Shown: positions 37,090 to 57,380, counted from the stretch's first letter. The stretch is DNA of 64,000 bases from an uncultured Acidobacteriota bacterium (GCA_964384905.1 CAYLND010000001.1:9915-73914); one strand, 5' to 3'. Translations and numbers: made by a program. Notes: generated by a model from the sequence alone, not told the origin.

Positions 37090-38041
37090 GGTGCGCCAGG
37101 GCGTGCACGACGACAGCGGGCGCGAGCGAGACCGCCATCAGCCCGAGCCACTCCCATCCGCGCAGGAGGCCTCGATAGTGCCACAGGAGACGGCGCGTCG
37201 CGCGGCCGTGGCCGGAGACCAGGACGCCCCGCGCCGCTCGCAGCATGCTCCGGCGTCCGTAACGCCGCGCCGCGATGGCCATCGCCGGCCGCGCGGCCTG
37301 CCGGCAGGTGGCCTCCACCTTCGCGAGCGCGGCGGCCATGCTGGGGATCATCCTCGCGGCCTGATTCGTCATGTTGCCGGTGTGCCGCCGGAGACGGACG
37401 AGCGCCTGATCGATGTAGCCGATCGGCCGGCGCACGTAGAGGCGGCTGAAGTATTCGAAGTCTTCGGCACCCCAGAGCGCCTCGTCGAAGTATCCAGCCT
37501 CGTCCAGCACCTCGCGCCGGGCGCAGAGACCGGAGGGAGCGATGGAATAGCCGGGGAGAAGGATCTGACCGAGGGGATCGTCGAGGATGACCTCCTCGGC
37601 TCCGAAGATCCCCCGAGGGATGAAGGGAGGACCGGCGCCACGGCCGGTGAAGTAGCGCAGGTTGGCGAGGACGAACGCCAGGTCGGGTCGACGCTCGTGG
37701 AACCGCACGGCGCGCTCCACCAGCTGCGGCTCGAGAAGGTCGTCCGCGTCGAGCAACACGATCCATCGTCCACGCGCCGCTCGCAGTCCGCGATTGCGGG
37801 TCGCCGCCAGACCGCCGTGCACCACCCGCAGGAGTCGCACCGGAGCGCTGAACGTCTCGACCCGGGCCGTGGTGTCGTCCTCCGAGCCGTCATCGACGAC
37901 GAGGACTTCCAGGTCCCGGAACGTCTGGTCCAGGGCGCTTCGGATCGAATCGGAAATGAACTGGGCGGCGTTGTAGGCGGGAATGAGCACCGTGACAGCG
38001 GGAGCGGTCGCGGCGACGGAGCCCCAGGACGGAGGCGTCAC
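37058..38041 (-). CDS. Glycosyltransferase family 2 (GT-A, DxD)
   Basis: VTVLIPAYNAAQFI...VVDDGSEDDT...LLDADD; GTG start with GGAGAG RBS, GTGA overlap with Wzx stop. Confidence 0.75.
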   Translation of the reverse strand: MTPPSWGSVAATAPAVTVLIPAYNAAQFISDSIRSALDQTFRDLEVLVVDDGSEDDTTARVETFSAPVRLLRVVHGGLAATRNRGLRAARGRWIVLLDADDLLEPQLVERAVRFHERRPDLAFVLANLRYFTGRGAGPPFIPRGIFGAEEVILDDPLGQILLPGYSIAPSGLCARREVLDEAGYFDEALWGAEDFEYFSRLYVRRPIGYIDQALVRLRRHTGNMTNQAARMIPSMAAALAKVEATCRQAARPAMAIAARRYGRRSMLRAARGVLVSGHGRATRRLLWHYRGLLRGWEWLGLMAVSLAPAVVVHALAHLKNRCAPRRL

Positions 38042-40538: not shown

Positions 40539-40539
40539 T

Positions 40540-41742
40540 TCAGGAAGTCGGCGCTTCGAGAAGGAGGGCGATCCCTTGCCCCCCGCTGATGCAGAGGGTG
40601 GACAGCCCCCGCCGCGCGCGCCGCCGCCGCATCTCGTGGAGGAGGGTCACGGTGATGCGGGCGCCGGTGGCGCCGAGCGGATGACCGAGGGCGATGGCGC
40701 CGCCGTTCACGTTGAGCCGCGCACGGTCGAATCCGAGCTCGCGGTCGCAGGCCAGGACCTGCGCCGCAAAGGCCTCGTTCAGCTCGATCAAGTCGATCTC
40801 GTCCAGCCGGAGACGCGTGCGCTCGAGGAGCCGGCGAATCGCGGGCACGGGTCCAAGGCCCATCACGGCAGGGTCGACTCCGGATGAGGTCGCCGCCACG
40901 ATACGGGCCTGGGGTTGGATCGCGAGTCGCCGCGCGGCCGCCCCGGAAAGGACGATCATGGCGGCGGCTCCGTCCACCAGCCCGCTCGACGATCCGGCGT
41001 GAACCGTTCCATCCTTCTTGAAGACGGGGGGAAGCTTCGCGAGCGATTCGGGTGTGACCCCATCGCGTGGGTGCTCGTCCTCGGCCACGAGAACGGGCCC
41101 CTTGGGTCCGGGGATCTCCACGGGAACGATTTCGTCCTGGAACGCCCCGGCTTTGCGCGCGCGCTCGCAGCGCTGCTGGGACTCGGCCGCGAAGGCGTCC
41201 TGCTCGGCGCGGCTGATGCGATAGCGCTCCGCCAGGGTCTCGGCGGTGTCTCCCATGACCTGGCCGCAGAGCGGGCAGAGAAAACCGTCGCGATACATCG
41301 CGTCCGTCAGACGCTGATGCCCGAGGCGGTAACCGAACCGCGCTCCCTCGAGAAGGTACGGGACGCGACTCATGGACTCGGCCCCGCCGACCAGGACGAC
41401 CTCCCGTTCACCCGCCAGGACGCTCTGATGGGCGGACAAGATCGCGCGCAGGCTGGACCCGCAGGCCATATTGATCGTGTAGGCGGGCGATGCGTCCGGG
41501 ACGCCGGCCCCGTGGGCGATCTGACGTGCCGGGTTGGGCCCGACTCCGGCGGGCCGCGCATGGCCCATGATGGTCTCTTCGACGTCCGAAGGCCGGACGT
41601 GCGCGCGCGTCATGGCGCCGCGCGCCGCGATCACACCCAGCTCGGGGGCGGTGAGCGCGCTGAGCGCCCCCCCGAACTTGCCCAGCGGGGTGCGCACGGC
41701 TCCCGCGATGAACACGTCCTGGAACTCTGCCATGGGCCCCAA
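40540..41742 (-). CDS. Acetyl-CoA C-acyltransferase (thiolase II)
   Basis: NMACGSSL active Cys, [16 protein letters not shown]-terminal CISGGQG. Confidence 0.85.
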
Positions 41743-41966: not shown

Positions 41967-43217
41967 ATGCGCATTCTCTACCTGACGCAGTACTTCCCGC
42001 CGGAGATGGGAGCGCCCCAGGCGCGCATCCCCGAGCTGATGGTGCAGATGGTCCGGCTCGGGCACCGGGTCACCATCCTCACGGCGATGCCGAATTATCC
42101 GCACGGACGGATCTTCCGGGGCTACCGCTGGCGGCCCGTCATGCGCGAGACGTTCCAGGGGATGCGCGTCGTGCGCACCTGGATCTATCCGACCATCGCC
42201 CTGGGCTTTCTCAGGCGCACCGCCAGCGCGCTGTCGTTCGCCGTGTCGAGCGCGGTCCTGGGGGCGGGGCTCGTGGGGGCCCAGGACGTGCTTCTGGTGG
42301 AATCGCCCCCGTTGTTCCTGGCGCTCACCGCGGTTCTTCTCAAGCGCCTGCTGCGGTGCCCGTACGTCGCGGTGGTCGCCGATCTGTGGCCGGAGGTGGC
42401 GATCGAGACCGGCATGCTCACCAACCCGCGCGCGATCCGCGTCGCCCGTTGGCTCGAGAGGCTCCTCTACGAGCGGTCTCTCGTCGTGGTGACCCAGACC
42501 CCGGGCCAGGTCGCGGACATCCGTTCGCGCTTTCCCGGCGTGAGGGTGGAGATGGTCAGTGGAGGCGTGGACAGCTCCAGGTTCTCCCCCGAACGGCGCA
42601 ACGAGGCCGTGCGCCGCGAGTTCGACGTGGCGGGGAGAGTCGGGGTCCTGTTTTCGGGGCTGCACGGGTTCGCGCAGGGATTGGATGCGGTCCTCGACGC
42701 GGCCGATCGACTTCGCGGGCGCGCGGACATCCGCTTCGTGCTGATCGGAAACGGGGCGGTCAAGCAGCACCTGGTCGGCCGGGCGGCGCAGCTGAAGCTT
42801 CCCAATCTGGACTTCCATGATCCGGTTCCGCGCGAGCGCATGCCCGCCATCGCGGCCTCGATGGATATCGCTCTCGCGCCGCTGCGTCGCGGAGTGCCCC
42901 GTGCGACGATCCCGACCAAGATTTACGAGGCGATGGCCTCGGGGCTGCCGATCGTCGTCGCCGGGGACGGCGAGGCGCACGATCTGGTGCGGGACCAGCG
43001 GATCGGCCTGGCGGTCCCCGCGGAAGCGGGACGCGAGATGGCCGCCGCCATCGCCCGCCTGGCGGACGAGGGCGTGCTGCGCTCCGAGTGTGCGTCGAAC
43101 GCTCTTCGGCTGGCGCGCGCCCGGTACGATCGGAGCGCCATCGCGCTCGTCCTCAATCGGCTCCTCAACGAGATCCGTCCGAGCTCACACCCACGCGATG
43201 CCGCCCCGCATCGGTAG
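41967..43217 (+). CDS. Glycosyltransferase family 4 (WcaI-like)
   Basis: MRILYLTQYFPPE N-terminus typical of WcaI-type GT4; GT-B C-domain with E..7..E region. Confidence 0.75.
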   Translation: MRILYLTQYFPPEMGAPQARIPELMVQMVRLGHRVTILTAMPNYPHGRIFRGYRWRPVMRETFQGMRVVRTWIYPTIALGFLRRTASALSFAVSSAVLGAGLVGAQDVLLVESPPLFLALTAVLLKRLLRCPYVAVVADLWPEVAIETGMLTNPRAIRVARWLERLLYERSLVVVTQTPGQVADIRSRFPGVRVEMVSGGVDSSRFSPERRNEAVRREFDVAGRVGVLFSGLHGFAQGLDAVLDAADRLRGRADIRFVLIGNGAVKQHLVGRAAQLKLPNLDFHDPVPRERMPAIAASMDIALAPLRRGVPRATIPTKIYEAMASGLPIVVAGDGEAHDLVRDQRIGLAVPAEAGREMAAAIARLADEGVLRSECASNALRLARARYDRSAIALVLNRLLNEIRPSSHPRDAAPHR

Positions 43218-45399
43218 GCTGCGTCTTGCTTATGAGCTGTGGTCGCAGTACGGAGCGGCCAATGTCGGATATCGCGTCCTGCACGAGGCTCTGCGCCGCT
43301 CCGGCTGGCTGAGGCGGCGGTTTCCGGCGGTCGGCTGGGAGGCGCGCCCGCCGCACACCTTCTGCGCGCCACACGTGCCCACCGCTCCCGGCGAGTATCG
43401 TGATTTTCGCGAGCGGTCCCCTGGTCGATTCTTCTTCGCTCCGGGCCGGCTGCCGGTCCTGCCGTCCGATTGGGCCGAGGACGCCGTCCGCGCCGGCGGC
43501 GCCGTTTTGTCCGGAAGGCCCCGCCTGGCTGGGCATCGGGCCGCCGATCTCGGGTTCCCGTTCGATTGGCTCGTGAATCCGCACACCGGCGTGCGAGCGG
43601 ACTCGCGGGCGCACTGGAGCGACCTCGACGGCTTCGAGAACACGCCGGGGGACGTCCGTGTCCTGTGGGAGCCGGCGCGGTTCGGCTGGGTCTACGCGCT
43701 CGGCAGGGCCTGCGCCGCGGTCCGCGGCGGCCGGTACGGCGAAGCCTTCTGGACTCTCTTGGAGTCCTGGCGAGCCGCGAATCCGCCGAACCTCGGTCCC
43801 CACTGGCAGGACGGGCAGGAGTGCGCCCTGCGCCTGCAGGCCCTCTGTTTCGGGCTGTACGCCTTCTGGAGCGATCCCTCGACGTCTCCCGAGCGGGTCC
43901 AGAGACTGGCGCAGACCGTCGCGCTGCACGCGGAACGGATCGAGGGGAATCTCGGTTTCGCGCGCACCCAGATGGGGAACCACGCGGTGAGCGAAGCCGC
44001 GGCGTTGTACACCGCGGCGGTCCTGTTCCCCGAGTTCTCGCGCGCCTCGCCCTGGAGACGTTTGGGGCTGCGGGTGCTCGATGACGAGGCCCGCCTGCAC
44101 AACCGGAGCGATGGCACGTACGCGCAGCACTCGATGAACTACCATCGCCTCATGCTCCACGAGTACCTGTGGGTCCTGCGCCTCGCGGAGCTGAACGGCG
44201 ATCGACTGGCTCCCGAGACCGTCGAGAAGCTGGATCGCGCCACGGAGTTCCTGTACCTGCTCCAGGACGAGCGGAGCGGCCGGCTCCCGAACTACGGTCC
44301 GAACGACGGGTCCCTCGTCCTGCCGCTCGACGGCTGCGACTTCCTGGACTACCGTCCGGTCATCGGAGCCATGCATCACCAGATTCACCGCGAGAGGCTG
44401 TACGCCCCCGGACCGTGGGACGAGGACCTCCTCTGGCTGTTCGGTCCCGCGTCTCACGAGGCGCCGCGCGTGGCACGACCGCGGCCGAGCGCGCGGCTGG
44501 ATCAAGGCGGCTATTACACGCTGCGCGGCCTGGAGACCTGGGGCATGGTGCGCTGTCACACCTTCCGCAACAGGCCGAATCAGTCCGACTTGCTGCACCT
44601 GGACCTGTGGTGGCGCGGCCAGAATGTCCTGCGTGATTCGGGGTCGTACCTGTACAACGCCCCCGAGCCTTGGCGCGACTGGTTCACTTCGACCGCGGCG
44701 CACAACACGGTCCAGATCGCCGGTCAGGACCAGATGGTGAAGGTGCGTCGCTTCAGTTGGGCGTACCTCGCGCGGGCCCGCGTGCGCGTGGTCCGTTGCG
44801 CGGGCGTCGACGGGTTCGACTATTTCGAAGGTGAGCACGAAGGATATCAGCGGCTTCCTGGTCGCATCACGCACCGGAGGGCGGTCGCGCGGATCGGTGA
44901 CCGCGCCTGGCTGGTGGTGGACGACGTGCTCGGGACGGGTCGATCGACGATTCGCGCGTTCTGGCACCTCCTCGACGCCCCCTGGACATCCGAGACGCAC
45001 CGCCTGTGCCTCGACACCGCGTCGGGGCCGGTGGCGTTGAGTTTTCTGACCCCGGGCGCCTCCTCCACGCTGCACGTGGCGCGCGGCGAGGAGGGGCGCC
45101 AGCCGCTGGGATGGGAATCGCAGCGCTACGGCGAGCGCGTGCCGGCCCCGGCCGCGTGTCTCGAGCTGATCGAGGCGCTCCTGCCTCAGCGCCTCGTGAG
45201 CCTCGTCTGCCTCGGTCGCGGCGGGGCGATCGAATCCGATCCCGCTGGCCGAATCCTGCGCTGGACGGACACGCCGGCCTTCTCGACCACCGTGACACTG
45301 TCGCCCACGGGAGGGGACGACAGCCCGGTGGTCAGGGAGATTCTGGCCGGGGAACGACGATGGATCGTGGAGCGGCGACCCCAGGAGCACAGCGCGTGA
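43198..45399 (+). CDS. Heparinase II/III-like protein (alginate-lyase-like N-domain + Hepar_II_III C-domain)
   Basis: 733-aa product, toroid N-domain and C-terminal HLDLWW...GSY region typical of the family. Confidence 0.55.
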   Translation: MPPRIGRLRLAYELWSQYGAANVGYRVLHEALRRSGWLRRRFPAVGWEARPPHTFCAPHVPTAPGEYRDFRERSPGRFFFAPGRLPVLPSDWAEDAVRAGGAVLSGRPRLAGHRAADLGFPFDWLVNPHTGVRADSRAHWSDLDGFENTPGDVRVLWEPARFGWVYALGRACAAVRGGRYGEAFWTLLESWRAANPPNLGPHWQDGQECALRLQALCFGLYAFWSDPSTSPERVQRLAQTVALHAERIEGNLGFARTQMGNHAVSEAAALYTAAVLFPEFSRASPWRRLGLRVLDDEARLHNRSDGTYAQHSMNYHRLMLHEYLWVLRLAELNGDRLAPETVEKLDRATEFLYLLQDERSGRLPNYGPNDGSLVLPLDGCDFLDYRPVIGAMHHQIHRERLYAPGPWDEDLLWLFGPASHEAPRVARPRPSARLDQGGYYTLRGLETWGMVRCHTFRNRPNQSDLLHLDLWWRGQNVLRDSGSYLYNAPEPWRDWFTSTAAHNTVQIAGQDQMVKVRRFSWAYLARARVRVVRCAGVDGFDYFEGEHEGYQRLPGRITHRRAVARIGDRAWLVVDDVLGTGRSTIRAFWHLLDAPWTSETHRLCLDTASGPVALSFLTPGASSTLHVARGEEGRQPLGWESQRYGERVPAPAACLELIEALLPQRLVSLVCLGRGGAIESDPAGRILRWTDTPAFSTTVTLSPTGGDDSPVVREILAGERRWIVERRPQEHSA

Positions 45400-46088
45400 G
45401 CGTCCGCGAGCAGTTTGACGTCGAGCTTCTCGGTCCGCGGCACGTGGATGAGGTCGCGACTCTGCACCTGCAGGCGATGCGGGGCTACTTCCTGTCCGAG
45501 CTCGGGGAACGTGTGCTGCGCCGGTTCTACGCGGAGTTCTGCCGGCATCCTTACGATTACGGCGTCGTGGCCATTGGTCGCACCACGGGGCGGCTGGCGG
45601 CGTTCGTCGTGGGCACCAGTGACTCCGCCGCCCACTTCAGGTCGTTCTATCGGCGCAACGCGCTGCTGCTCGCCGGTGAGGTGGCGATCGCCGCGGTCCG
45701 TCGGGCGGCGGTCCGGCGGGGACTGCTCCGTCGCCTGCGCCACCTCCTGTTCGCCGGTCTCGCGGTGGTGCGATGGCATCGACCCGTCGCGAGCGCGCCG
45801 GGGCCCCCGCGCGGTCCGGACCGGGTCTGTCCGGTTCGGCTCCTGTCGATCGCCGTGGCGCCGGACTGCCAGGGCACGGGCGTATCCGGACTGGTCGCGC
45901 TGCGTTTCGAAGAGGTGCTGCGGCAGGCCGGGTTCACGCGCGTCGGATTGTCGGTGCACGGGGACAACGACCGGGCGATCGCCTTCTATCGGAAATCGGG
46001 CTGGCAGGAGACCTATCGATCCGAGGCGGGGCTCTGGTTCGAGAAGTCTATCGGAGCGCCGCGCGCGACCGTCCCGCGCTCGATGTAG
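45396..46088 (+). CDS. GNAT family N-acetyltransferase (GTG start overlapping upstream stop)
   Basis: CQGTGVSGLV acetyl-CoA P-loop-like motif, GWQE C-terminal motif. Confidence 0.5.
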   Translation: MSVREQFDVELLGPRHVDEVATLHLQAMRGYFLSELGERVLRRFYAEFCRHPYDYGVVAIGRTTGRLAAFVVGTSDSAAHFRSFYRRNALLLAGEVAIAAVRRAAVRRGLLRRLRHLLFAGLAVVRWHRPVASAPGPPRGPDRVCPVRLLSIAVAPDCQGTGVSGLVALRFEEVLRQAGFTRVGLSVHGDNDRAIAFYRKSGWQETYRSEAGLWFEKSIGAPRATVPRSM

Positions 46089-47486
46089 TCGATCTCGGAC
46101 AGTCGTCCCTTCAGGATCCGGTCGCTGCCCATCCGCGCGTACAAGAGCATCTCGCGCCAGCGCCGCATCCACGTGGTCGCGAAACGGGCGGTCAGCATGG
46201 AGCGGACGGGCAGGTAATCGTACTCGTAGAGGTTGAAGAGAAGGTTTAGCAGGGCCATGGTCCGGCGGGTGCGCGCCGTCACGCGGTAGCGCACCCGCTT
46301 GCTGATCGCGAGGTGCGAGAAGAGATCGAGCGCCATGCACTGGCGGAACACGAAGGTCGTCGTGTGGATCTCCAGCGGATGCTCTGCCGGTGGCGCTGTC
46401 GGCGGGATCTCGCTGACCGCCCGCCGGTACACGTCGATCTCGAAAACCTGCGCGTCGTCGCCCGCGCTCACGACGAAGCGCGCGGGGCGCCCCTTGAACC
46501 GCCGGCGGACGAGCCGGGGGACGGCCGCGAGGAACTTCGAGAAATACGCACGGACCTCCTGCTCGCGGACGCGCGAACGGGCCTCTGTCGCGTAGAACCG
46601 CTCCAGGACGGACGTCTTCTCGTCACGATAGCGCTCGAGATGCACGTCGCGTCGGTCGAAGAAGTCCATGGCGGTCGGAGAGAGCTGGAAACCGCGATCG
46701 GTGGACCAGGAATCACCCGCCAGCATGATCACGATCTGTGGTGAGGCGAGGCCGCGCTCCCGGAAATGGGTCTCCACCATGCGGGGGGTCTGAATGGTGC
46801 CATTGAGAGAGTAAACGTCCTTGTGAAGGTAGCAGTGATTGCTGGCGAACGGGATGGCGTGGCGCGCGCCCGTGGCGCGCGCGAAGGCCGCGAAGCTCTC
46901 GATGTAGCGCTCCAGATCGTCCACGGGTGCGGTCGGATCGTCGATCACATCATAGGAGAGCCGGCTGTTGGCCGAGCTGTGGCTCCGGAACAGGAAATCG
47001 ATGGACGGGTGCCGCTTCAGGATCTGACGCAGCGGGCCCCCCATGAACTTGGCGTCGTTCGCATCCAGCAGGGTGATCCCGGCGCACTCCACGACCAGCG
47101 CGCTGTCCAGGAACGGGCTGAACTGGTAGGAGGTGATCCGGAAGTCGTCCCCCAGCGGGACCGATCCGGCATGGGGGATCTCGCGCACGTTGCGGAAGCC
47201 GAGGCGGTGCAGATCACGCGGGATGCGGTCGTGATGCCCCCGGGGTACCAGGATCGGAGTCTCGCGCGGAAACCGTCGCAGGGACACTCCGTGGAAATGG
47301 TCCCAGTGGATGTGCGTGAGATAGATGGCGTCGGGACGCAGGCTTCGCAGGAGGTCGTCGGGGACGGGCGGGTAGTTCCACCAGGAGCGCCAGTAGCAGC
47401 TGCCGACGATCCACGGATCGATGAGAAGCGACACGCCGGCACCCCTCACCAGGAGACCGGCGTGGGACACGATGGTGAATTCCACG
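46013..47486 (-). CDS. MBL-fold metallo-hydrolase with ~240-aa C-terminal extension
   Basis: THIHWDHFHG (HxHxDH) and downstream His/Asp ligands; GTG start preceded by GAGG. Confidence 0.55.
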
Positions 47487-47535
47487 TTGACGACGCCTCG
47501 ACCCGGGTGCCTTTCGCGCGCGAACGCTCCGCCAG

Positions 47536-48921
47536 TCACAGGGGCGACAGTCGCCCCTCCGTGACCTCGGAGACCACGAAACGCAGCTTGCCGCTCGGTG
47601 ATCGGGGAAGGCGATCGACGTACTGGAACTCGACCGCCGCGAGATCGCCGACCCGTTTTCGGAACTCCTCGCGCAACCGGCTCTCGTCCCGCTCCTGATA
47701 CCGCGCGTGCCGCACGATCCGGACGGTGAGGCGTCCGGGCTCGCGCTGGACGATCTGTGCCTCTCGAATCGCCATCATGTCCTTGAAGATGTGATCCATG
47801 CGCCCCAGGAGCGCCCCGTTCTTCAGGATCACATAGTCCTCCTTGCGACCGTCCACGCCGGCCACGCGGCGCCCGGGAAGCCCGCAGACGCAGGGGTCGG
47901 TCGCCGCCTCGACGCGATCCCCGACATCGTAGCGGAGAAGCGGAGCGGCCGGGTTGGAAAGATTCGTGCCCACGACGCGGTGATCGCGCTCGCCCTCGCC
48001 GGGGAGGAACTCGACGGCCGCGAAGTCCTCGTCCACGTGCATCCCGCCCCTCGGACACTGAAAGCAATTGGCCACGGCCTCCGCCATCCCGTAGTGCTGG
48101 ATCGGCGCCTGACCGAGTGCCTCCTGGATCACGACCGCCTGATGGTGCATCAGGTTCTCGGCGCCGGTCGTCACCCAGGCCGGGACGTAGCCGAGGGTCT
48201 CGCCCTGCTCCAGAAGGAGCGAGGCGAACAGAGACATCAGGGAGGGGTAGCCGTGCAGCCAGGGTGGCCTGGTCCGTCGGAGCAGGGCGACATAGTGTCT
48301 GAACGTATCGGGTGAGAGGTGGTAGGCGCTGAACAGGATCTGTCGGCCCGGCCGGTTGAATCTCCAGAACGGCGGCGTCGTCTGTCGCAGCGGCACGACC
48401 GAGCGTCCGCCGAAATATCCGCACCATGTGCCCATCTGCAGTCCATGGAGCCGGTAATAGCGCCACCAGATGGCGTATTGCTCCTGCAGCGCGAGGCGGG
48501 TGGTGACCAGGCGCAGCCCCGCGCCCGTGGTGCCGCTGGTGTGGATCGGCACCCGCAGCCCGGGAGGCACGCGCTCGGAGATCAGCTCGGTCGAGCGCTC
48601 CTGGACGGTCGCCTTGTCGAGAACAGGGAGAGTCCGCAGATCCTCCAGCGTGCGGATCGCGGCCGGGTCGATCCCATGGTCGCGAAACATCCCGCGATAG
48701 TAAGGCACCGACTCGGCGCAGTGTCGGACAAAGGCGCGAAGCCTGGCATCACGAAACGCCTGCAGGCGATCCGGCCCCCAGGTGAGCCTCTGCTCCGCCT
48801 CGCGCAGGAGCGCCGGGAACCTCCCTCCGAAGCGGTCCCGCTGGATTCTCCAGCCTTGCAGACTGCACGCCAGATTCTGGAGGGCGATCGGAAGACCCAG
48901 GTAGAGCGATTCGGCCTCCAC
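47536..48921 (-). CDS. Phenylacetate-CoA ligase-like adenylate-forming enzyme (CapK / F390-synthetase-related family)
   Basis: TSGTTG adenylation motif, PaaK-like C-domain; start either GTG 48921 (TAGTG overlap) or ATG 49017. Confidence 0.6.
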   Translation of the reverse strand: MEAESLYLGLPIALQNLACSLQGWRIQRDRFGGRFPALLREAEQRLTWGPDRLQAFRDARLRAFVRHCAESVPYYRGMFRDHGIDPAAIRTLEDLRTLPVLDKATVQERSTELISERVPPGLRVPIHTSGTTGAGLRLVTTRLALQEQYAIWWRYYRLHGLQMGTWCGYFGGRSVVPLRQTTPPFWRFNRPGRQILFSAYHLSPDTFRHYVALLRRTRPPWLHGYPSLMSLFASLLLEQGETLGYVPAWVTTGAENLMHHQAVVIQEALGQAPIQHYGMAEAVANCFQCPRGGMHVDEDFAAVEFLPGEGERDHRVVGTNLSNPAAPLLRYDVGDRVEAATDPCVCGLPGRRVAGVDGRKEDYVILKNGALLGRMDHIFKDMMAIREAQIVQREPGRLTVRIVRHARYQERDESRLREEFRKRVGDLAAVEFQYVDRLPRSPSGKLRFVVSEVTEGRLSPL

Positions 48922-50399
48922 TAGCGGCCGCTCTCGATCCGTCCGATCCAGCCGAAGTGGGGGCGCAAGCGGAAGCGATCGTCGCAGGTCCTGAGATGCT
49001 CCAGATCTCCGTTCCATGGGGCGTGATTGCTGACGCAGACGGCGGCCCGAGACGGTGCCGAGGCGATCGGGAAGGCGCGCGCCGAAAACGCATGGGACGT
49101 GATCGGGATGCGCTCCGGGTCGAATCCCATCACCACGGCGGCGACCGTGTCCACCAGGGCCGGATCCCGGCCCAAGAGAAGCGTTCCGGCTGGATACGGA
49201 TCGGGGTCGACCGGACCGTCGCCGTGTCCGGCGATAAGACCGTCGACGAATGAAAGGCAGGTCTTCCGGCTGGCGGACTCGGGGGAGCGGAACGTCCCGT
49301 CAGGGTTGCCGTAAAGCACGATCTTGTTCAGGTCGAGACACATGCGCCATACCGTGTCGTTGCCGTGCCAGTTGCCGCTGCGCACGACCTTGCTGGTATC
49401 GCCGAAGACCGTCGCACCGGCACGGCGCGCCTTGCGCAGCAGCCAGGTCCCCAGCGAGGGCGAGCGCAGCGCCGCATGACGGAGAAGCCGTGAGGAGTGG
49501 TGCTCGATGCGACGGCGGATGGTCGCAGCAGGGTACTGATCGCCGCCGCATTCGGGGTACCCGACGGTGTGATGCGGCAGCCAGTTCTTGTCGCCGTTCA
49601 CGCCGACCAGGTTCTTCAGGCTCACCGTGATGCCCGCCTTCTTGTGCGTTTTCAGCTTGGGCAGGTTGATGAACAGATCGCAGCGGATCACCGATCCGGA
49701 AATCAGGTACTCGTGCTTTCCCCCGTGATGATGGCGGTTGACCTCCCCTTCGTCGTAGTCGGCTCCGTAGTAGCGCCCTTCACCGCGGTGACCGACGAAC
49801 TCGCTGTCCGCCCCGAGATCGAAGGCGACGTAGCCGGACGGATCGCCCGGTCGGGCTCCGCGCTCGACGATGACCCCCTCGCGGCTGAGCCACTCTTCGC
49901 GCCGCAGGTCGACCAGCTCCAGCGGGAGTCCGTGCGCCGCGTAAAACGCCCTGAGGGAGTCCAGACCCAGGATGCGAACCATGCGCTGGAACGAGGAGTC
50001 GGTCTGCGGCGCGTCGGCGATCATGACGCGCCCGCGGCCATCGAGCGCTTTCCAGACGTAATCGGTCACGGCGCGGATGATGCTCCCGTGCGTGAGGGTG
50101 TAGATCCATCCCGACGGATCCCTTGGATGCTCCTCTTTGATGAGATTGGGCTTGAGGACCACGAACTGGCCGGGGCCGACCAGATCGCGCAGCGGGTTCC
50201 ACGCCGGAGTTCCCCTGTGCGCCTCGTCGAGCCCCGCGAGCATGAGCGCGCCGCGGACCGCTTCGTAGGCGGGGTTTCCCTCGCGGCCGATCGCTCCCGG
50301 AAAAGGGGATTCGGGGTACGCCTCTGCGGGGTGGTACGGGGCTGTCGACGGGTAACCGGCGTGCGTGGAGCGATGCAGAACGACGGTGGTCTCGTCCAT
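48921..50399 (-). CDS. DUF362 domain protein (unknown function)
   Basis: VVLKPNL, LKTHKKAGITVSLKNLVGV, DGLIAGHGDGP motifs characteristic of DUF362. Confidence 0.45.
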   Translation of the reverse strand: MDETTVVLHRSTHAGYPSTAPYHPAEAYPESPFPGAIGREGNPAYEAVRGALMLAGLDEAHRGTPAWNPLRDLVGPGQFVVLKPNLIKEEHPRDPSGWIYTLTHGSIIRAVTDYVWKALDGRGRVMIADAPQTDSSFQRMVRILGLDSLRAFYAAHGLPLELVDLRREEWLSREGVIVERGARPGDPSGYVAFDLGADSEFVGHRGEGRYYGADYDEGEVNRHHHGGKHEYLISGSVIRCDLFINLPKLKTHKKAGITVSLKNLVGVNGDKNWLPHHTVGYPECGGDQYPAATIRRRIEHHSSRLLRHAALRSPSLGTWLLRKARRAGATVFGDTSKVVRSGNWHGNDTVWRMCLDLNKIVLYGNPDGTFRSPESASRKTCLSFVDGLIAGHGDGPVDPDPYPAGTLLLGRDPALVDTVAAVVMGFDPERIPITSHAFSARAFPIASAPSRAAVCVSNHAPWNGDLEHLRTCDDRFRLRPHFGWIGRIESGR

Positions 50400-50400
50400 C

Positions 50401-51260
50401 CTACTTGACGGCGACGATCATGAGCCACAATCCGTGCCGGCGGAACAGCGTCCTGATCAGCCAGCGCGGCCACAGCGCCCTGGCGAGGGTCAGGATGGGG
50501 CCCCGGTGGTTCAGGCCGACTTCCCCCAGAAGCAGATCGCTCGAGGTCAGGAGGGTGTGGACATCCCGTACCTCCGAAAACTCCGAGAACAGCCGCCGCG
50601 CCTCGTCTGGCGTGTACGCCTTGGTGCCGGGGTTCTCCAGATGATGAGCGTAGATGTCCGCCAGCGAGCGGGAGGGTCGCCCCGCCAGGAGGGCATACCG
50701 CAGCCACAGCATGTATCCGACCATGGAATAGGTATGGTAGACCATCACGCGGGCGACACCTCCCGGTCGAAGCACGCGACGGACTTCTCGAATCGCCGTC
50801 GGCGTGTCCGGCGTGGCATGCAGCACCCCCCAGGAATAGACGAGGTCGAAGGAGTCGTCGTCGAACGGCAGATGCTCGGCGTCGGTCACCATCAGATTCG
50901 AGGACAAGCCGTGCATTCTCAGCCGCTCCCGCGTGAATCCAATGGCCCGGGGCGTCAGGTCGACACCCGTGAGGGTCCGAGGGTTTGCTTTGGCCCACTC
51001 GAGATGATCGGCGCCCATCCCCACGCCGATCTCCAGGACATCGCGTTCCGCCCCATCGTGGAACCGGGCGAATTCGAAAATGTAACTTTCGAACGCATAG
51101 CGCGCCGAGCGCTGGGCCTCGAGCCTCTCCTGGAGCGAGTCGCCGCGCGCGTAGACCTCCCCGCAGGAGTGTTTCTGAAAATACTCGCGCGTGGCGCGTT
51201 TGAGGGCCGTGTCCGTGTCCTCGACGTGTCGGTCCACCGCGCGGTCGCCAGACGTCATCA
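50401..51260 (-). CDS. Class I SAM-dependent methyltransferase (Methyltransf_11-like)
   Basis: VLEIGVGMG motif I; GGAGAG RBS 6 nt upstream of ATGATG. Confidence 0.6.
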
Positions 51261-51475
51261 TGATGACCTGCTCTCCATTCCTCGCTGCCGAGCCACCAAT
51301 GTACCGCAGCGGACCGCCGTGATCTACAACGTTTTTAGTGCGCGGCATGGACGCTCGATGTCCCGCAGGGGTCCGAAGACCGCGCCCGGCCGGGGTCCTC
51401 GGGCCGGCGCTTCTCAGCGGCGGCGCTTCTATGCGATCATGAATTGTCCGTGTCGTTCGGCCGGGAGGTTCCCAT

Positions 51476-52597
51476 TTGAAGGTCGCGATCCTGATCGATG
51501 CGCTCAACCGAGGCGGGGCCGAGCGTCAGGTGCTGAACACGACCTGGGCGCTGTCCCGAGAGGGCTGCCCGGTCGAACTGATCCATTATTACGCGATCGA
51601 CGGCCGCTCCGGGTATGACCATCCGGCTTTCCACGAGGCCCGCGTCGTCTGCATTCCGAAACGCGGCCGGCCGCTCGGATTCGTCTGGCGGCTGGCCGGA
51701 TATCTCCGGCGCGGCCGGTTCGACGTCGTGCATGCCTTCAAGTCGGTGCCGACGCTGTACGGCTGTCTGGCGGGGAAGCTGGCGGGGGTGCCCGTCATTC
51801 TCGGCGGATGCCAGGGGGAATACGAGGATCGGGGCCTCGCCCGGCTGGGGCATCGCATCGCGAAGCCGTTCCTGGCGGGCTGGATCACCAACACCCGCTC
51901 GATCGTCGAGTCCCTGGTGAGAGAAATCGGCGTTGCCCGGGAGGACTGTCACGTCGTCTACAACGGGATCGATCCCCGCTCCTTCGCATCGTCGCTGTCA
52001 CCGTCCGGAGCGAGGACCAGGCTGGGCCTGCCGCCCGACGCGCAGACGGTGGTCATCGTCGCAGGGCTCCGGCCGGTCAAGAACCACCGCCTGTTCCTGG
52101 ACATGGCGCGCCTCGTCCTGGCCCGGCTCCCGGAGACCCGTTTCCTTCTCGCGGGGGACGGCGAGGAGCGGCGCGCGCTGGAACGTTACGCGCGCGAAAT
52201 CCAGGTGGCCGACCGCGTCCTCTTCCTGGGGAGCCGCTCCGACATACCGGACGTGCTGGCGGCAACCGACGTCTCCGTCCTGACCTCCCATTCGGAAGGC
52301 CTCCCGAACGCGCTGATCGAATCGATGGCCGTCGGTGTTCCGGTCGTCACCACCGATTACGCGGGCGCCGCGGAATTCATGACGGACGGAGAGGAAGGGT
52401 TCATCGTGCCGCGCGGCGACGCCCGCGCGATGGCCGACCGGGTGTGTCACCTCCTCGAGGACCCCTCGCGAAGGAAGACGATGGGCGAGAAAGGGACGCG
52501 AACGATCGGCGGGCGGTTCAGCATGGAGATCATGGCCGCGGGATTCCTGGAGGTCTACCGCAGGTGCCTGGAGAGGGTCGCCCCGGTGACCGCGTGA
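51476..52597 (+). CDS. Glycosyltransferase family 4 (TTG start, GGGAGG RBS)
   Basis: MKVAILIDALNRGGAERQV N-terminus and GT-B C-domain EGLPNALIESMA. Confidence 0.75.
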   Translation: MKVAILIDALNRGGAERQVLNTTWALSREGCPVELIHYYAIDGRSGYDHPAFHEARVVCIPKRGRPLGFVWRLAGYLRRGRFDVVHAFKSVPTLYGCLAGKLAGVPVILGGCQGEYEDRGLARLGHRIAKPFLAGWITNTRSIVESLVREIGVAREDCHVVYNGIDPRSFASSLSPSGARTRLGLPPDAQTVVIVAGLRPVKNHRLFLDMARLVLARLPETRFLLAGDGEERRALERYAREIQVADRVLFLGSRSDIPDVLAATDVSVLTSHSEGLPNALIESMAVGVPVVTTDYAGAAEFMTDGEEGFIVPRGDARAMADRVCHLLEDPSRRKTMGEKGTRTIGGRFSMEIMAAGFLEVYRRCLERVAPVTA

Positions 52598-53721
52598 TCA
52601 GGAAGCCCGCCGCGCTGGCCATCGTCGCCGGCTACCCGCCGCCCTACGGCGGAGTCACGGTCGAGGTGCAGCGGCTGCGATCGCTGCTGGACAGGCGGGG
52701 CGTGGACTACGTGATTTACAACGCGGTATCGGCCAGCGAAGACGGCGACCGGGTCCGATCGGTCTTTCGCCGCAGGACGCTCTGGACGCTGCGCTATCTC
52801 CTGGGGGGACGTGAGCCGGCCGTCTATCTGATGTCGGGGAGGCTCATGGCCTGGCTTCTGGGGGCCTTCGCCGCGCGCTGGCGGGGCAAGCGCGTGCTCG
52901 TGCAGCTGCGCAACTCCTTCCTGGCGGATTGGATCGCTCGTTCGCCGTGGCGGCGTTTCTGGGCGGGTCTCGCCCTGCGCCATGTGACGGGCGTGGTCTG
53001 CGTCAGCAGGCTGCTGATGGACTGCGCGGTCACGGTGGGAGTCGATCCGCAGCGGCTCCTGTGGTCTCCGGCCTTCCTGCCTCCCGAGCTGGCGCCGGAG
53101 GACCGGCGGAATGTCGCTCCCGAAGTCTGGTCGTTCACCTCGGCCCACCGGCCCCTCATCGCGGCCAACGGCAAGGTGCTCTGGTACGAGGGGCAGGATC
53201 TCTATGGTCTTGATCAACTGGTGGAGCTGGCAGCCCGCCTGAAGCCGGACCTTCCCGAGGTCGGCATCGTCGTGTGCTTCTGGGACCACGTTCCCGAGGA
53301 TGAGGCTTACCTGGCACGCCTCACGCGCCGCGCCGAGACGCTCGGGGTATCGGGGCACGTGCTTTTCAACACGAAGAAAGGGGCCTTCGTGCCGGTGCTC
53401 GAAGTGTCGGACGTCTTCGTCCGCCCCACCAATACCGATGGCGACGCGGTCTCGATCCGCGAGGCCCTCTATCTGGGCGTTCCGACCGTTGCCAGCGACG
53501 CCGTGGAGAGGCCGCCAGGGACGACGCTCTTTCGCACCCGGGATCTCGATGATTTGGAGGCCAAGGTGCGCAGCCTGCTCCGTGGCGGCCCGCGTCCTGA
53601 GCCACGCGTGCGGGGCCGGCTGAGCGAGCCGGATCGGACGCGTATCGAGGCCTACGTGTCCCTGCTCTCGTCCGTCGCCGCGGGTGGGGGTGCAAGGACG
53701 CGAGCGGCGCGCGCCGACTGA
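52594..53721 (+). CDS. Glycosyltransferase family 4-like (GTG start, GTGA overlap)
   Basis: GT-B fold C-domain (EALYLGVPTVASD); N-domain divergent. Confidence 0.65.
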   Translation: MIRKPAALAIVAGYPPPYGGVTVEVQRLRSLLDRRGVDYVIYNAVSASEDGDRVRSVFRRRTLWTLRYLLGGREPAVYLMSGRLMAWLLGAFAARWRGKRVLVQLRNSFLADWIARSPWRRFWAGLALRHVTGVVCVSRLLMDCAVTVGVDPQRLLWSPAFLPPELAPEDRRNVAPEVWSFTSAHRPLIAANGKVLWYEGQDLYGLDQLVELAARLKPDLPEVGIVVCFWDHVPEDEAYLARLTRRAETLGVSGHVLFNTKKGAFVPVLEVSDVFVRPTNTDGDAVSIREALYLGVPTVASDAVERPPGTTLFRTRDLDDLEAKVRSLLRGGPRPEPRVRGRLSEPDRTRIEAYVSLLSSVAAGGGARTRAARAD

Positions 53722-53740
53722 CCCGCCTGCGGGGGCCGAC

Positions 53741-55894
53741 TTGAAACAGGTCCTACAGAATCTCAGGACAGGAGAGATCGAGGTCGCCGAGGTTCCGTGT
53801 CCTGCCCTGCTCCCGGGCCATCTGCTGGTCCAGACGCGGGCGTCCCTCATCTCGTCCGGCAGCGAGCGAACGCTCCTGACGTTCGGGCAGTCCTCCTGGC
53901 TGAACAGGGCGCGCAGTCAGCCTGACAAGGTGCGGCGTGTCGTGGAGAAGATCCGCGTGGACGGCCTCGTGCCGACCCTCGAAGCCGTTTTCGCGCGGCT
54001 GGACGAGCCGCTCCCGCTCGGGTACTGCAATGCGGGCGTCGTCGTGGAGACGGGCGCAGGCGTGGAGCGATTCCGCCCGGGCGACCGGGTCGCGAGCAAC
54101 GGACCCCATGCGGAGATGGTCTCGGTGCCGACCAACCTCTGCGCGCGCGTTCCCGACACAGTCCCGGACGAGCGCGCGGCCTTTGCGGTCCTGGGGTCCA
54201 TCGCGCTGCACGGAACGCGTCTGCTCGAGCCGACGCTGGGCGAGTCGGTGGTCGTGTTCGGGCTGGGTCTCGTCGGGCTCCTCGCGGTCCAGGTGCTCCG
54301 AGCGCACGGCTGCAGAGTCCTGGGGATCGATCCGAACCCCGCGCGGCGCGATCGGGCGACCGTCCTCGGAGCGGACTCGACGCAGGATCTGGCGCCAGGC
54401 GGCGACCCCATGGCCGCGGCCTCGGCGTTCTCGTCACGACGTGGCGTGGACGGAGTCCTGATCGCGGCTTCCGCTCCCGGTAACGAGATCATCCGTCAGG
54501 CCGCCAGGATGTGTCGCAAGCGCGGTCGGATCGTTCTCATCGGTGTGGTGGGGCTCGATCTCGACCGGACCGATTTCTACGAGAGGGAGCTCTCCTTCCG
54601 CGTGTCCTGCTCCTACGGCCCGGGTCGCTATGATCCGGAGTACGAATCCGGCGGCCGGGACTACCCGCTGGCCTACGTGCGCTGGACCGAGCAGCGCAAC
54701 CTGGAGGCGGTGCTCTCCCTGATGGCGGACGGCCGCCTCGACGTCGGTCCCTTGATCACCACCCGGGTGCCGCATGGGGAGGCGTCGCGAGCCTATCAGT
54801 CCCTGACCACGGACGCTGACGCCCTCGGCATCGTCCTCGAGTATCCCAGGAAGCCCGCGCCGTTGCAGCGAGTCGTCCAGTCGTCGGCGAGCGTCCCCCG
54901 CCAGGAGGCCTCCGGCGTTTCGGTCGGCGTGATCGGCGCCGGCGATTTCGCGAGCTCGATCCTGCTGCCGGCCCTGCGTCGGTCGGGAGTCCATCTGGAA
55001 TCGATCGCGGCGCGTCACGGTGTCTCCGCGGCGCGCGCGGGGCGCACCTTCGGATTCCGTCAGGTCAGCAGCGATCATCGCGTCGTTCTCGAGAATCCCG
55101 TCGTGAACACGGTCTTCATCGTGACGCGTCACGACAGCCATGCCCGACTCGCGATCGAGGCGCTCGAGGCCGGGAAGAACGTGTTCGTGGAGAAGCCCCT
55201 GGCGCTCGACCGCGACGAGCTGCAGGCCGTGGCGCGCGTGCATGCGTCAGCGGGCCGGCAGCTGGTGGTTGGATTCAATCGCCGCTTCTCGCCGCACGCG
55301 CGGGCCCTGAAGCGGCTCCTGATGGCGCGGCGGACGCCGGCCACCCTCATCATGACCGTGAACGCCGGCTCTCTTCCTCCCGGTCACTGGCTGCAGGATC
55401 CGCGACAGGGGGGCGGCCGCCTCGTCGGCGAGGCCGTGCATTGGATCGATCTGCTGCTGTTCCTCGTGGATCATCCGATCGTCTCGGTCGCGTGCGCGCG
55501 CCTGGGAGCGGGCCCACCAGATCCCCCGGGGGATTCCGTGACCCTGACCCTCGCCTTCGCGGACGGATCGATCGGCACGATCCACTACCTCACGGAGGGG
55601 AGCCGGCGCTTCCCGAAGGAGCGGCTCGAGATCGTGTTCGAAGGGCGCATCCTGCAGCTCGATAATTTCCGCACGCTGACGGGCTTCGGGGTCCCCGGGT
55701 TCTCCCGGCTGCGCACGTGGCGCCAGGACAAGGGGCATCGCGCCGAGCTGGCCGCGTTCATCGACTCGGTCCGACGGGGAGGCGAGCCGACGATTCCCTT
55801 CGCCGACCTCGAGCACGTCACGCTCGCCAGCTTTGCCGCCCTCGAATCGGCCCGCATGGGGAGCGTGGTCCGGCTGGCACCGGTCCATTCCTAG
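53741..55894 (+). CDS. Bi-domain oxidoreductase: N-terminal zinc-type MDR alcohol dehydrogenase fused to C-terminal Gfo/Idh/MocA NAD(P)-oxidoreductase
   Basis: GLGLVGLLAVQ Rossmann motif of the MDR domain and a second Rossmann (VGVIGAGDFASS) plus GFNRRF of the GFO family; alternative ATG at 53684. Confidence 0.65.
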   Translation: MKQVLQNLRTGEIEVAEVPCPALLPGHLLVQTRASLISSGSERTLLTFGQSSWLNRARSQPDKVRRVVEKIRVDGLVPTLEAVFARLDEPLPLGYCNAGVVVETGAGVERFRPGDRVASNGPHAEMVSVPTNLCARVPDTVPDERAAFAVLGSIALHGTRLLEPTLGESVVVFGLGLVGLLAVQVLRAHGCRVLGIDPNPARRDRATVLGADSTQDLAPGGDPMAAASAFSSRRGVDGVLIAASAPGNEIIRQAARMCRKRGRIVLIGVVGLDLDRTDFYERELSFRVSCSYGPGRYDPEYESGGRDYPLAYVRWTEQRNLEAVLSLMADGRLDVGPLITTRVPHGEASRAYQSLTTDADALGIVLEYPRKPAPLQRVVQSSASVPRQEASGVSVGVIGAGDFASSILLPALRRSGVHLESIAARHGVSAARAGRTFGFRQVSSDHRVVLENPVVNTVFIVTRHDSHARLAIEALEAGKNVFVEKPLALDRDELQAVARVHASAGRQLVVGFNRRFSPHARALKRLLMARRTPATLIMTVNAGSLPPGHWLQDPRQGGGRLVGEAVHWIDLLLFLVDHPIVSVACARLGAGPPDPPGDSVTLTLAFADGSIGTIHYLTEGSRRFPKERLEIVFEGRILQLDNFRTLTGFGVPGFSRLRTWRQDKGHRAELAAFIDSVRRGGEPTIPFADLEHVTLASFAALESARMGSVVRLAPVHS

Positions 55895-55898: not shown

Positions 55899-57380
55899 AT
55901 GGCCCATCCTCTCCCGCCGTTCGTTCAGGTTCCGTGCCGCTCGGGCTCACGTGACCTCAGGATCGTCGTGCTCACGTCGACGGCGGTCCGGATCGCCTTC
56001 ATCCTGTGGGGCTTGTCGGGGGATTACATCAAGCCCTTTCACGGCATGTCGGACGTTGACTTCACGGGCGGGTATGCGATCGCGGCGGGATACGGCTATG
56101 TGACCGGTGCTCCCTGGGTGTCGGCCCGGCTCACCGACATGTACCAGCGGGTGACCGAGGGAACGCTGATGGCCGCGCCCGGGACGGTGGAGCCGATCGA
56201 CCGGGGCGATCTCGTTCCCAGGACCATCCACCCGCCGGGATTGGCACTCCTCGTGGCCGGCCTGCATCGTCTGCTCGGGACGAGCGCCTCTCTCCCCGTG
56301 GAGATCCTGGGAGCGGTCCTGGACACCGTCTCGGCGGCACTGGTGTGGCGGATCAGCGCGTCGTGGCTCGGCGCGCGCGTGGCGTTTGCCGCGGGTCTAT
56401 GCCATGCCCTGTTCCCTCCGTTCGGCTACTGGTCGACAGTCGCGAAGTCGTCGGACGGGCTGCTGGGCTTCTTCATCATCGCGAGCCTCGCCTGCGGCCT
56501 GCGGGCGACCCAGGCGGTCGGGCCGGCGGCCGCGGGATGGGTCGTGGCCGCCGGAGCCCTTCTCGGGGTCGGCTGCTACCTGCGGCCGGACTACCTCATG
56601 CTCCCGCCGGTCGTGGGAGCGGCGGCCGGACTGGCCACCCGCCGATGGCGGAGAGCGGCGATTGGTGTCGTGCTGGCCCAGGGGGTGGCCATTCTGTGCC
56701 TCGTTCCATGGGCCTATCGCAATGAGAGGGAGACGGGCTGGTGGATCTTCACGAGCAGCAGCGTGGGGGGCACGCTGGTGAGCGGGCTGGGGGAGTTCAG
56801 CAACTCCTGGGGCATCGGAAGCACGGACGACGATCGTGAGAGGGAGGCTCACGCGCTCGGATTCTCCGACCCGTTCCAGCCGGAAGCGGATGCCTATTTC
56901 CGCCATGTCTTCGCGCAGAAAATCAGGGAGCGGCCCGGGGCCTTTCTCCTCGCCATCGTCCGGCGCCTGCCCCTCTCCCTGGCGACGCCTTACACGTGGG
57001 GATTGATCAATCCCTGGAAGACGGAGACCTTCACCGAGGCGCGTCAGACCGGTCTCGATCAGTACGACGTGGTCCTGAAGCGTCCGCGATACGTGCTGGC
57101 GGCGTACTGGGACCGTCTGGCCATGGCGCTCGTGACCTTGGCGTGCACGATGGGAACGGCCGCCATGCTCGTCCTCGAACGACACCGCGCCGCCGATCTC
57201 CTCCTGCTCATCAGTCCTCACGTCTACTCGATGGCCGTGCATCTGCTGACCCACATGGAGCCGCGCTACCTGCTCCCGAGCATGTCCCTCTGGCTGATCG
57301 GGCTGGCCTACGTCATCGCGCAGGGATGGGAGTCGAAGCGAGTCGATGCGGGGCGCGTGAGTCGGGGCCTCGGCGCGTGA
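55899..57380 (+). CDS. GT-C superfamily membrane glycosyltransferase (ArnT/PMT/GT39-83-like, ~11-12 TM)
   Basis: Multi-TM protein with periplasmic-loop acidic motif region and size typical of undecaprenyl-/dolichyl-phosphate-sugar-dependent transferases. Confidence 0.5.
   Translation: MAHPLPPFVQVPCRSGSRDLRIVVLTSTAVRIAFILWGLSGDYIKPFHGMSDVDFTGGYAIAAGYGYVTGAPWVSARLTDMYQRVTEGTLMAAPGTVEPIDRGDLVPRTIHPPGLALLVAGLHRLLGTSASLPVEILGAVLDTVSAALVWRISASWLGARVAFAAGLCHALFPPFGYWSTVAKSSDGLLGFFIIASLACGLRATQAVGPAAAGWVVAAGALLGVGCYLRPDYLMLPPVVGAAAGLATRRWRRAAIGVVLAQGVAILCLVPWAYRNERETGWWIFTSSSVGGTLVSGLGEFSNSWGIGSTDDDREREAHALGFSDPFQPEADAYFRHVFAQKIRERPGAFLLAIVRRLPLSLATPYTWGLINPWKTETFTEARQTGLDQYDVVLKRPRYVLAAYWDRLAMALVTLACTMGTAAMLVLERHRAADLLLLISPHVYSMAVHLLTHMEPRYLLPSMSLWLIGLAYVIAQGWESKRVDAGRVSRGLGA

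Follow-up and report, generated by a model that had tools for sequence, protein, structure and literature searches.

A DUF362-family protein and a PaaK/CapK-like ligase are encoded by a conserved gene pair of surface-glycan loci and may tailor glycan sugars

The window analysed here is a stretch of 64,000 nucleotides (nt) from an uncultured Acidobacteriota bacterium (GCA_964384905.1, CAYLND010000001.1:9915-73914) with a G+C content of ~69%. Within a Wzx-type surface-glycan locus at ~36.5-60.5 kb it carries four consecutive minus-strand genes that code for a class I S-adenosylmethionine (SAM) methyltransferase, a DUF362-family protein, a PaaK/CapK/VpsH-like adenylate-forming ligase and a protein of the metallo-beta-lactamase (MBL) fold. 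These open reading frames (ORFs) lie where the initial annotation had placed them and their Pfam and NCBIfam matches agree with the families it had named. They occupy positions 46013-51261 and have a coding-type composition, with a G+C content at third codon positions of 0.82-0.86. Their coordinates (Table 1) were fixed by the gene calls on a public contig encoding identical proteins. The TAG termination codon of the methyltransferase gene is spaced by one base from the ATG of the DUF362 gene (two had been annotated), and the TAG of the latter overlaps the GTG initiation codon of the ligase gene by one G (TAGTG), an overlap already annotated; both junctions were read from the sequence. The GTG of the MBL gene is found 50 nt past the ligase stop codon and has a GAGG sequence upstream, while the ATG of the methyltransferase gene is preceded by GGAG. 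A 214-nt intergenic region separates the four-gene operon from divergent glycosyltransferase (GT) genes of the GT4 and GT1 families (51476-53721). At the opposite side, the 3' ends of the MBL gene and of a plus-strand GNAT acetyltransferase gene overlap convergently by 76 nt (46013-46088), as also called on the public contig. A scan for promoters and terminators found nothing above chance. The other products of the glycan locus are a GT2, a Wzx/MurJ-like flippase, two GT4, one GT1-family protein, a heparinase-like protein, the GNAT protein, a PMT_2-type protein and a two-domain oxidoreductase in which an alcohol dehydrogenase (ADH) part is fused to a Gfo part.

Conservation of the four genes was assessed in a scan of one genome per species, where relatives of the DUF362 protein were present in at least 590 contig stretches. 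The window proteins were compared with 84 loci, 80 of them from the scan and four from context look-ups; the main counts refer to 56 loci in which the DUF362 gene is flanked by 5 kb or more in both directions (designated well-flanked) and which cover more than 10 phyla and the archaeon Halorubrum. The ligase gene is adjacent to the DUF362 gene in 55 of these 56 loci, almost always directly downstream on the same strand, with a median gap of 68 nt. A metagenome scan seeded with a 35%-identical paralogue recovered a divergent DUF362 branch, 35-57% identical to the window protein, in which the ligase is adjacent in 30 of the 35 loci that have at least 2 kb on each side. Look-ups that started from the ligase found DUF362 immediately upstream in three of three cases. 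The co-occurrence of DUF362 with CapK-like ligases, which the initial annotation had proposed to check across genomes, is therefore strongly conserved. Identities of the DUF362 protein and of the ligase to the window pair are correlated (r = 0.71, 114 loci), with a mean of 50% for DUF362 versus 38% for the ligase. The higher conservation of DUF362 suggests a constant chemistry of this protein combined with a variable specificity of the ligase.

A third partner had been overlooked in the initial annotation. The ADH/Gfo two-domain oxidoreductase is encoded in 39 of the well-flanked loci, usually straight after the ligase; in the window its gene is displaced to the strand opposite to the pair. 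A GT4 like the one encoded at 41967-43217 is found in 30 of the 56. Unbiased clustering of every ORF up to 8 kb away at 52 loci retrieved the ligase (49 loci), the oxidoreductase (37), the GT4 (26), an AsnB-like asparagine synthase positioned upstream of the cassette (22), the heparinase-like protein (21), a GT2 (18), a carbamoyltransferase (15), a DegT aminotransferase (15) and WecB (9). Wzz and Poly_export genes are also present around the pair. Evolution thus keeps DUF362 and the ligase together, usually with the two-domain oxidoreductase, in glycan-assembly loci. Only for the DUF362-ligase pair is the arrangement beyond chance. The literature searched does not describe a cassette with an obligate DUF362 partner, a two-domain oxidoreductase and a wide phylogenetic spread, in line with the view of the initial annotation that no pathway is known for this combination, and a search for 'bi-domain-containing oxidoreductase' returned nothing relevant.

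The DUF362 relatives found by the scan belong to taxa that include the Acidobacteriota, Pirellulales, Binatia, Chloroflexota, Gemmatimonadota, Zixiibacteriota, Desulfobacteraceae, Gammaproteobacteria, Verrucomicrobiota and Chlamydiota, the genera Frankia and Pseudofrankia, and the archaeon Halorubrum. In the species-representative collection, a metagenome-assembled genome (MAG) of Candidatus Binatia (L005) comes closest; its DUF362 protein is 77% identical to that of the window. Relatives of the DUF362 protein are not encoded on any plasmid in PLSDB. One Acidobacteriota locus (L002/L010; 840-2279 and 10001-12899) has two divergent DUF362-ligase pairs, the second of which combines a 35%-identical DUF362 with its own adjoining, 28%-identical ligase. 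Another locus (L077, 2687-6931) has the gene order ligase-DUF362-ligase. These two arrangements suggest that every pair works as a separate unit of distinct specificity. Two further loci have an unusual composition. In an Acidobacteriaceae MAG (L039, 769-7074, minus strand) the cassette is preceded by a gene resembling ATP-grasp L-amino-acid ligases, a gene for a 712-residue HMGL-like protein and a WbpB/WbpE/WbpD-like trio (Gfo oxidoreductase, DegT aminotransferase, hexapeptide acetyltransferase), followed by genes for an AsnB-like protein, a GT2, DUF362, the ligase, the ADH/Gfo oxidoreductase and a carbamoyltransferase; the ensemble looks like a pathway for a heavily N-modified amino sugar. 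A 9.3-kb contig (L171, 1627-8361) codes for a truncated DUF362 of 301 residues, a stand-alone Gfo protein, a second DUF362 and a double-length ligase of 786 residues, which could be a misassembly or a rearranged cassette.

The DUF362 protein matches PF04015 above the Pfam gathering threshold (90.2 bits for a cut-off of 24, E 2.4e-25). This is its only Pfam match, with none to Lar_N/DUF2088. It has more than 5000 homologues, 55-80% identical across phyla, and its subfamily of ~490-520-residue proteins is large (1,106 clusters at 50% identity, E <= 1e-30) and unusually well conserved. The literature searched holds no functional characterisation of DUF362. The initial annotation had proposed structure prediction as a means to find a cofactor site; the outcome was a well-supported fold and a candidate site that aligns weakly. 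The AlphaFold2 model has a mean predicted local distance difference test score (pLDDT) of 91.8 and a predicted template-modelling score (pTM) of 0.93. When it was compared with the Protein Data Bank (PDB) by Foldseek, the top 16 matches were all LarA-family proteins (13 at E <= 0.001, the best at 7.8e-6) and the next one was unrelated (E 0.07). Among the 16 are lactate racemases, malate racemases and two LarA-like enzymes that have only one catalytic histidine (9Q3J, 9Q3K). The LarA family of nickel-pincer-nucleotide (NPN) 2-hydroxyacid racemases and epimerases (5HUQ, 9Q3J, 9Q3K) is the only solved fold that matches the model. DUF362 and DUF2088, the N-terminal family of LarA, are assigned to the same Pfam clan (PMC11770544). 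The modelled structure thus points to a LarA-like two-domain alpha/beta fold. DUF362 differs from LarA by its separate Pfam family (PF04015, not DUF2088), its large insertions, its glycan-locus context and its fusions to glycosyltransferases.

These fusions, all from metagenomic gene calls and mutually independent in sequence, link DUF362 proteins of the subfamily to GT4 glycosyltransferases (P0363, P0399, P0417, P0465), to a TOD1/MUCI70 glycosyltransferase-like domain (P0473) and to PGA_cap/CapA domains (P0369, P0414). A further protein, P0361, has a 355-residue N-terminal part without a Pfam match. His252, Lys262 and His276 of the window protein are invariant, even in the divergent paralogue, and His277 is nearly so. 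A weak alignment (E 0.079) of the motif His-x9-Lys-x14/15-His puts DUF362 His252, Lys262 and His277 on LarA His174 (catalytic), Lys184 (cofactor-tethering) and His200 (nickel ligand). The L. plantarum LarA sequence used was verified to be identical to the 5HUQ chain over its 424 native residues.

The ligase has a marginal AMP-binding match in Pfam and matches FlxY, PaaK, DVU_1553 and F390-synthetase families of NCBIfam, all far below their cut-offs. The CapK_C domain (PF27533) is annotated on the identical public protein (P0241). The motifs TSGTTG (position 129), YGMAE (277) and a C-terminal SGK (443) correspond to intact motifs of ANL adenylate-forming enzymes, and the best solved relatives are of PaaK type (4R1L, 2Y27; E 7e-13 to 1e-8). 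The protein shares the adenylate-forming core and motifs of the PaaK-like ANL subfamily (4R1L, 2Y27, 6SIW, 6WUQ), and its sequence supports assignment to the PaaK/CapK-like branch of these enzymes. An identity as phenylacetate-coenzyme A (CoA) ligase PaaK was ruled out because its scores are an order of magnitude below the equivalog cut-offs (48.7 versus 646 bits for TIGR02155, 77.9 versus 700 bits for NF041878). Unlike PaaK, it has no paa genes nearby, and its likely acceptor is an amine rather than CoA. A possible membership of the threonine-adding AglU of M. maripaludis in the ligase or DUF362 class found no support in the literature searched and was dropped.

The two outer genes of the operon behave differently from the pair. 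Neither the methyltransferase nor the MBL gene is present in any of the 56 well-flanked loci. Among the 84 loci compared, they occur together only in the Binatia MAG L005, which has shorter flanks and all four genes; in L087, whose DUF362 is 66% identical to that of the window, an MBL gene lies 4.4 kb off the pair and the methyltransferase is missing. In Sorangium, Niastella and Pirellulales, homologues of the MBL protein (50-59% identity) are encoded by solitary genes whose surroundings are unrelated. Both genes are therefore lineage-specific additions to a conserved pair, and a place of the MBL gene in the conserved system was rejected. The initial annotation had treated the four genes as a unit. 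That they form one dedicated pathway is improbable in view of this distribution, even if their tight packing in a single orientation, with no internal terminator, and their joint presence in L005 speak for it.

The methyltransferase matches Methyltransf_11 (78.7 bits for a cut-off of 21.2, E 5.5e-22) and has no equivalog-level match in NCBIfam. The MBL protein belongs to the MBL fold superfamily: it matches Lactamase_B_2 slightly above the cut-off (27.5 versus 27 bits), its HxHxDH motif is intact (THIHWDH, residues 58-63) with H58, H60, D62 and H63 invariant, and its model (pLDDT 87.9, good over the MBL core) retrieves 138 PDB matches at E <= 0.001, the best 50 of which are all MBL-fold proteins. 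The label 'MBL hydrolase' of the initial annotation is unsafe, and probably wrong, because the nearest solved relatives are the diiron beta-hydroxylases FrsH and CmlA. FrsH (8A90) leads the PDB matches in the sequence search (E 1.9e-4) and also in the fold search, where it is followed by CmlA; the hydrolases SaxA, UlaG and NAPE-PLD come close to them in score. The alignment with CmlA/FrsH is confined to the MBL core, and the fold matches span ~290 columns. Pipelines of the Joint Genome Institute (JGI) label homologues of the protein 'UDP-MurNAc hydroxylase'. The N-terminal domain of CmlA/FrsH and the Rieske domain of the N-acetyl hydroxylases NamH/CMAH are both absent from the MBL protein. Its C-terminal ~200 residues (~270-490; window 46013-46700) form a helical/beta, confidently modelled region covered by no PDB fold match. 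This region is highly conserved, with W443, R444 and E445 invariant, and is an uncharacterised domain of a protein whose gene is solitary and widespread.

A precedent for a ligase of this class in a glycan locus comes from the VPS pathway of Vibrio cholerae. A 2026 study reported that the PaaK-/CapK-like VpsH is required for the glycine amide on the L-GulNAcA residue of a lipid-linked disaccharide, acting after VpsJ, a proposed C5 epimerase (PMC13463779). VpsH resembles the window ligase by its PaaK/CapK-like nature and its position in a Wzx/Wzy glycan locus; its role is supported by genetics. VpsJ is described through epimerase-like and dehydrogenase-like folds with no mention of a lactate racemase (PMC13463779), and so is probably not a DUF362 protein. 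VPS also differs from the cassette by having no two-domain oxidoreductase. The amidation precedent and the fusions of DUF362 to glycosyltransferases lead us to favour, tentatively, a cassette that tailors a sugar of the glycan repeat unit, DUF362 modifying the residue and the ligase amidating its carboxylate. The ligase would use ATP to adenylate a carboxylate of the repeat unit, most probably that of a uronic acid on a lipid-linked intermediate, and would then hand the acyl group to an amine to form an amide, as genetics indicate for VpsH. DUF362, with its LarA fold and conserved His-Lys-His site, would act on the same residue just before the ligase or together with it, most likely by an overall redox-neutral stereochemical change (epimerisation). 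The oxidoreductase may supply or adjust the oxidation state of the sugar. In the lineage of the window the methyltransferase and the MBL-fold metalloenzyme (oxygenase or hydrolase) would be extra tailoring steps. The substrate, the formation of an amide, the DUF362 reaction and any cofactor are inferred.

The Halorubrum locus (L064) fits this proposal. Its gene order is WecB, UDP-ManNAc dehydrogenase, GT4, heparinase-like protein, oxidoreductase, ligase and DUF362. WecB and UDP-ManNAc dehydrogenase have their counterparts in VPS, and the locus would follow the logic of VpsA/B/K plus VpsJ/H with two extra enzymes. Other systems that form an ATP-dependent amide on a surface-glycan uronic acid are the AsnB-like WbpS and the ATP-grasp amidoligase Cj1438. 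They belong to superfamilies unrelated to the ligase and neither is known to have a DUF362 partner; AsnB-like genes are found upstream of the cassette in 22 of the 52 clustered loci.

Several observations weigh against the tailoring cassette or against its LarA component. VpsH was likened to the window ligase by description rather than by sequence alignment. A UDP-sugar 6-dehydrogenase is encoded within 10 kb in only two of 51 loci, so that a uronic-acid substrate is not locally encoded in most cases; genes for uronic-acid synthesis were accordingly rejected as usual partners of the cassette, and the window has no such dehydrogenase anywhere. No amine-donor gene is consistently linked to the cassette. 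The similarity of DUF362 to LarA holds at fold level only, with a template-modelling (TM) score of just ~0.25. Neither the single DUF362 sequence nor a profile gave a useful match among PDB sequences, LarA included, and comparison by hhalign of a low-diversity alignment (A1) with LarA yielded a spurious match only. The site alignment mentioned above is the best local one of a diverse 135-member profile (DUF362 232-278 with LarA 155-202), weak as it is. No invariant histidine of DUF362 follows the strand (ADAPQTD, assigned by strand order) that corresponds to the one preceding the second catalytic histidine of LarA, His108, although LarA-like enzymes with a single histidine exist and 9Q3J and 9Q3K are among the top fold matches. 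A LarB-like gene was found neither near 160 loci nor in the window, a weak test, made with E. coli PurE as the query; the window also has no lar-type gene. Finally, LarA enzymes are known to act only on free 2-hydroxy acids and not on glycosides (PMC11770544). Activity of nickel-pincer cofactors on sugars was recently demonstrated with an unrelated scaffold (PMC13524815), which makes a sugar-acting DUF362 less exotic, though it is no test of the idea. A bolder version of the proposal is that the DUF362 subfamily is a new catalytic LarA-fold branch acting on sugars instead of free hydroxy acids, which would invert a uronic-acid stereocentre while the glycan is being assembled, possibly with a hydride-carrying cofactor tethered to Lys262, as the obligate companion of an amidating ligase; we hold it to be doubtful.

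The substrate preference of LarA is also the first argument for the strongest rival, a route through free acids, which resembles the transfer of an acyl or aryl substituent suggested in the initial annotation. DUF362 would racemise or epimerise a free 2-hydroxy acid, as all characterised LarA-family enzymes do with such substrates (PMC11770544), and the ligase would convert the acid into its acyl-AMP or acyl-CoA form. As an acyl substituent, the acid would then be placed on an amino sugar or a hydroxyl group of the glycan, with the local GNAT, methyltransferase and MBL proteins trimming it further. The nearest solved relatives of the ligase are indeed CoA ligases with free acids as substrates, 15-18 of ~51 loci encode DegT aminotransferases, a type of enzyme that makes amino sugars, and a GNAT gene abuts the operon. 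However, DUF362 is fused to glycosyltransferases and not to small-molecule enzymes, no acyltransferase or carrier protein is consistently linked to the pair, and the only genetics on such a ligase from a glycan locus points to a glycan carboxylate and an amine. Given the VpsH precedent and the fusions, we prefer activation of a glycan carboxylate over that of a free acid, which we consider unlikely.

A second possibility is that the pair forms one ATP-driven epimerase system. Adenylation of the uronic-acid carboxylate by the ligase would turn H-5 acidic, the His/Lys residues of DUF362 would invert C5, and the adenylate would be hydrolysed or captured by an amine. The obligate pairing, the translational coupling of the two genes and the stronger conservation of DUF362 relative to the ligase are compatible with such a mechanism. 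To our knowledge, enzymes that epimerise C5 at the monomer or lipid-linked level are largely unknown, which leaves a place for it. In V. cholerae, epimerisation must precede or accompany glycine addition (PMC13463779). The mechanism is without precedent and was arrived at by chemical reasoning alone, and the heparinase II/III-like proteins of ~40% of the loci are alternative epimerase candidates, all of which leaves it a slim chance. Least probable of all, and by a wide distance from being likely, is that the ligase serves DUF362 itself, adenylating a carboxylate-bearing cofactor and attaching it to Lys262 in the manner of lipoate and biotin ligases so that DUF362 is the only catalyst and the glycan stays untouched: the one-to-one pairing, the start-stop overlap, the co-variation, the lysine that covalently holds the cofactor in L. 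plantarum LarA (the one aligned with Lys262) and the lack of a lar biosynthesis gene nearby (a weak test) would agree with it, but the ligase diverges much faster than DUF362, as expected for varying substrates rather than for one constant protein partner, ligases of the CapK/VpsH type also function in glycan loci that lack DUF362, and no DUF362-ligase fusion exists among the best 150 representatives.

The remaining features of the window are listed in Table 1 or below. Its first 36 kb carry housekeeping genes (IMP dehydrogenase, chorismate synthase, elongation factor G (EF-G), queuosine genes, carbamoyl-phosphate synthase and others). The queuosine run (22268-25913, plus strand) codes for QueE-like, QueC-like, QueA-like and Tgt-like proteins, assigned by reading their translations only. 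Genes for an acyl-CoA dehydrogenase and a thiolase (39366-41742, minus strand) are positioned in the middle of the glycan locus, between the Wzx-like flippase and the first GT4. A 1040-residue protein (57423-60542, plus strand) has no NCBIfam match; syntenic proteins of 1032-1039 residues are encoded beside the same locus in L085 and L087. It is followed by PlsC-like, MlaE and MlaD-like genes (60529-64000), and L087 also has a MlaD/MlaE/ABC/acyltransferase set.

Table 1. Features of the DUF362-ligase operon and of the surrounding glycan locus (window coordinates).
Feature	Length (residues)	Position	Strand	Assignment and context
DUF362-family protein	492	48921-50399	-	PF04015; core member 1 of the conserved pair
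PaaK/CapK/VpsH-like adenylate-forming ligase	461	47536-48921	-	CapK_C; core member 2 of the pair
Class I SAM methyltransferase	286	50401-51261	-	Methyltransf_11/25/31; first gene of the local operon, lineage-specific
MBL-fold metalloprotein	490	46013-47485	-	Lactamase_B_2; last gene of the local operon, lineage-specific here
Two-domain oxidoreductase	736	53684-55894	+	MDR/ADH_zinc_N and Gfo/Idh/MocA (Pfam); usual third cassette member
Heparinase II/III-like protein	733	43198-45399	+	Hepar_II_III_N, Hepar_II_III_C; frequent cassette neighbour
GT4 glycosyltransferase	416	41967-43217	+	Pfam; frequent cassette neighbour
GNAT acetyltransferase	230	45396-46088	+	Acetyltransf_1, public-contig gene call; convergent with the MBL gene
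GT4	373	51476-52597	+	Pfam, public-contig gene call
GT1-family protein	385	52564-53721	+	Pfam, public-contig gene call
Methyltransferase fragment, GT2, Wzx/MurJ-like flippase		36568-39249		Pfam; left part of the glycan locus
PMT_2-type membrane glycosyltransferase-like protein	470	55968-57380	+	Precomputed Pfam, identical public contig; right part of the locus

DUF362 is a large family without an assigned function, and one big subfamily of it is now tied to a fixed partner, the CapK/VpsH-like ligase, and to a fixed process, surface-glycan assembly, with His252, Lys262 and His276 as candidate active site. We see a genuine possibility that DUF362 stands for chemistry new to the LarA fold. The cassette is present in cultured hosts (Halorubrum sp. 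CBA1125, Pseudofrankia sp. BMG5.36, Frankia), which makes the question directly testable. Should the pair indeed epimerise and amidate uronic acids, this would account for amide-decorated acidic glycans in many soil and sediment bacteria and in at least one haloarchaeon, and LarA-fold chemistry would be extended to carbohydrates. A DUF362 subfamily that is a sugar-acting branch of the LarA fold would give a function to a widespread DUF and provide a candidate for the long-missing monomer-level uronic-acid epimerases.

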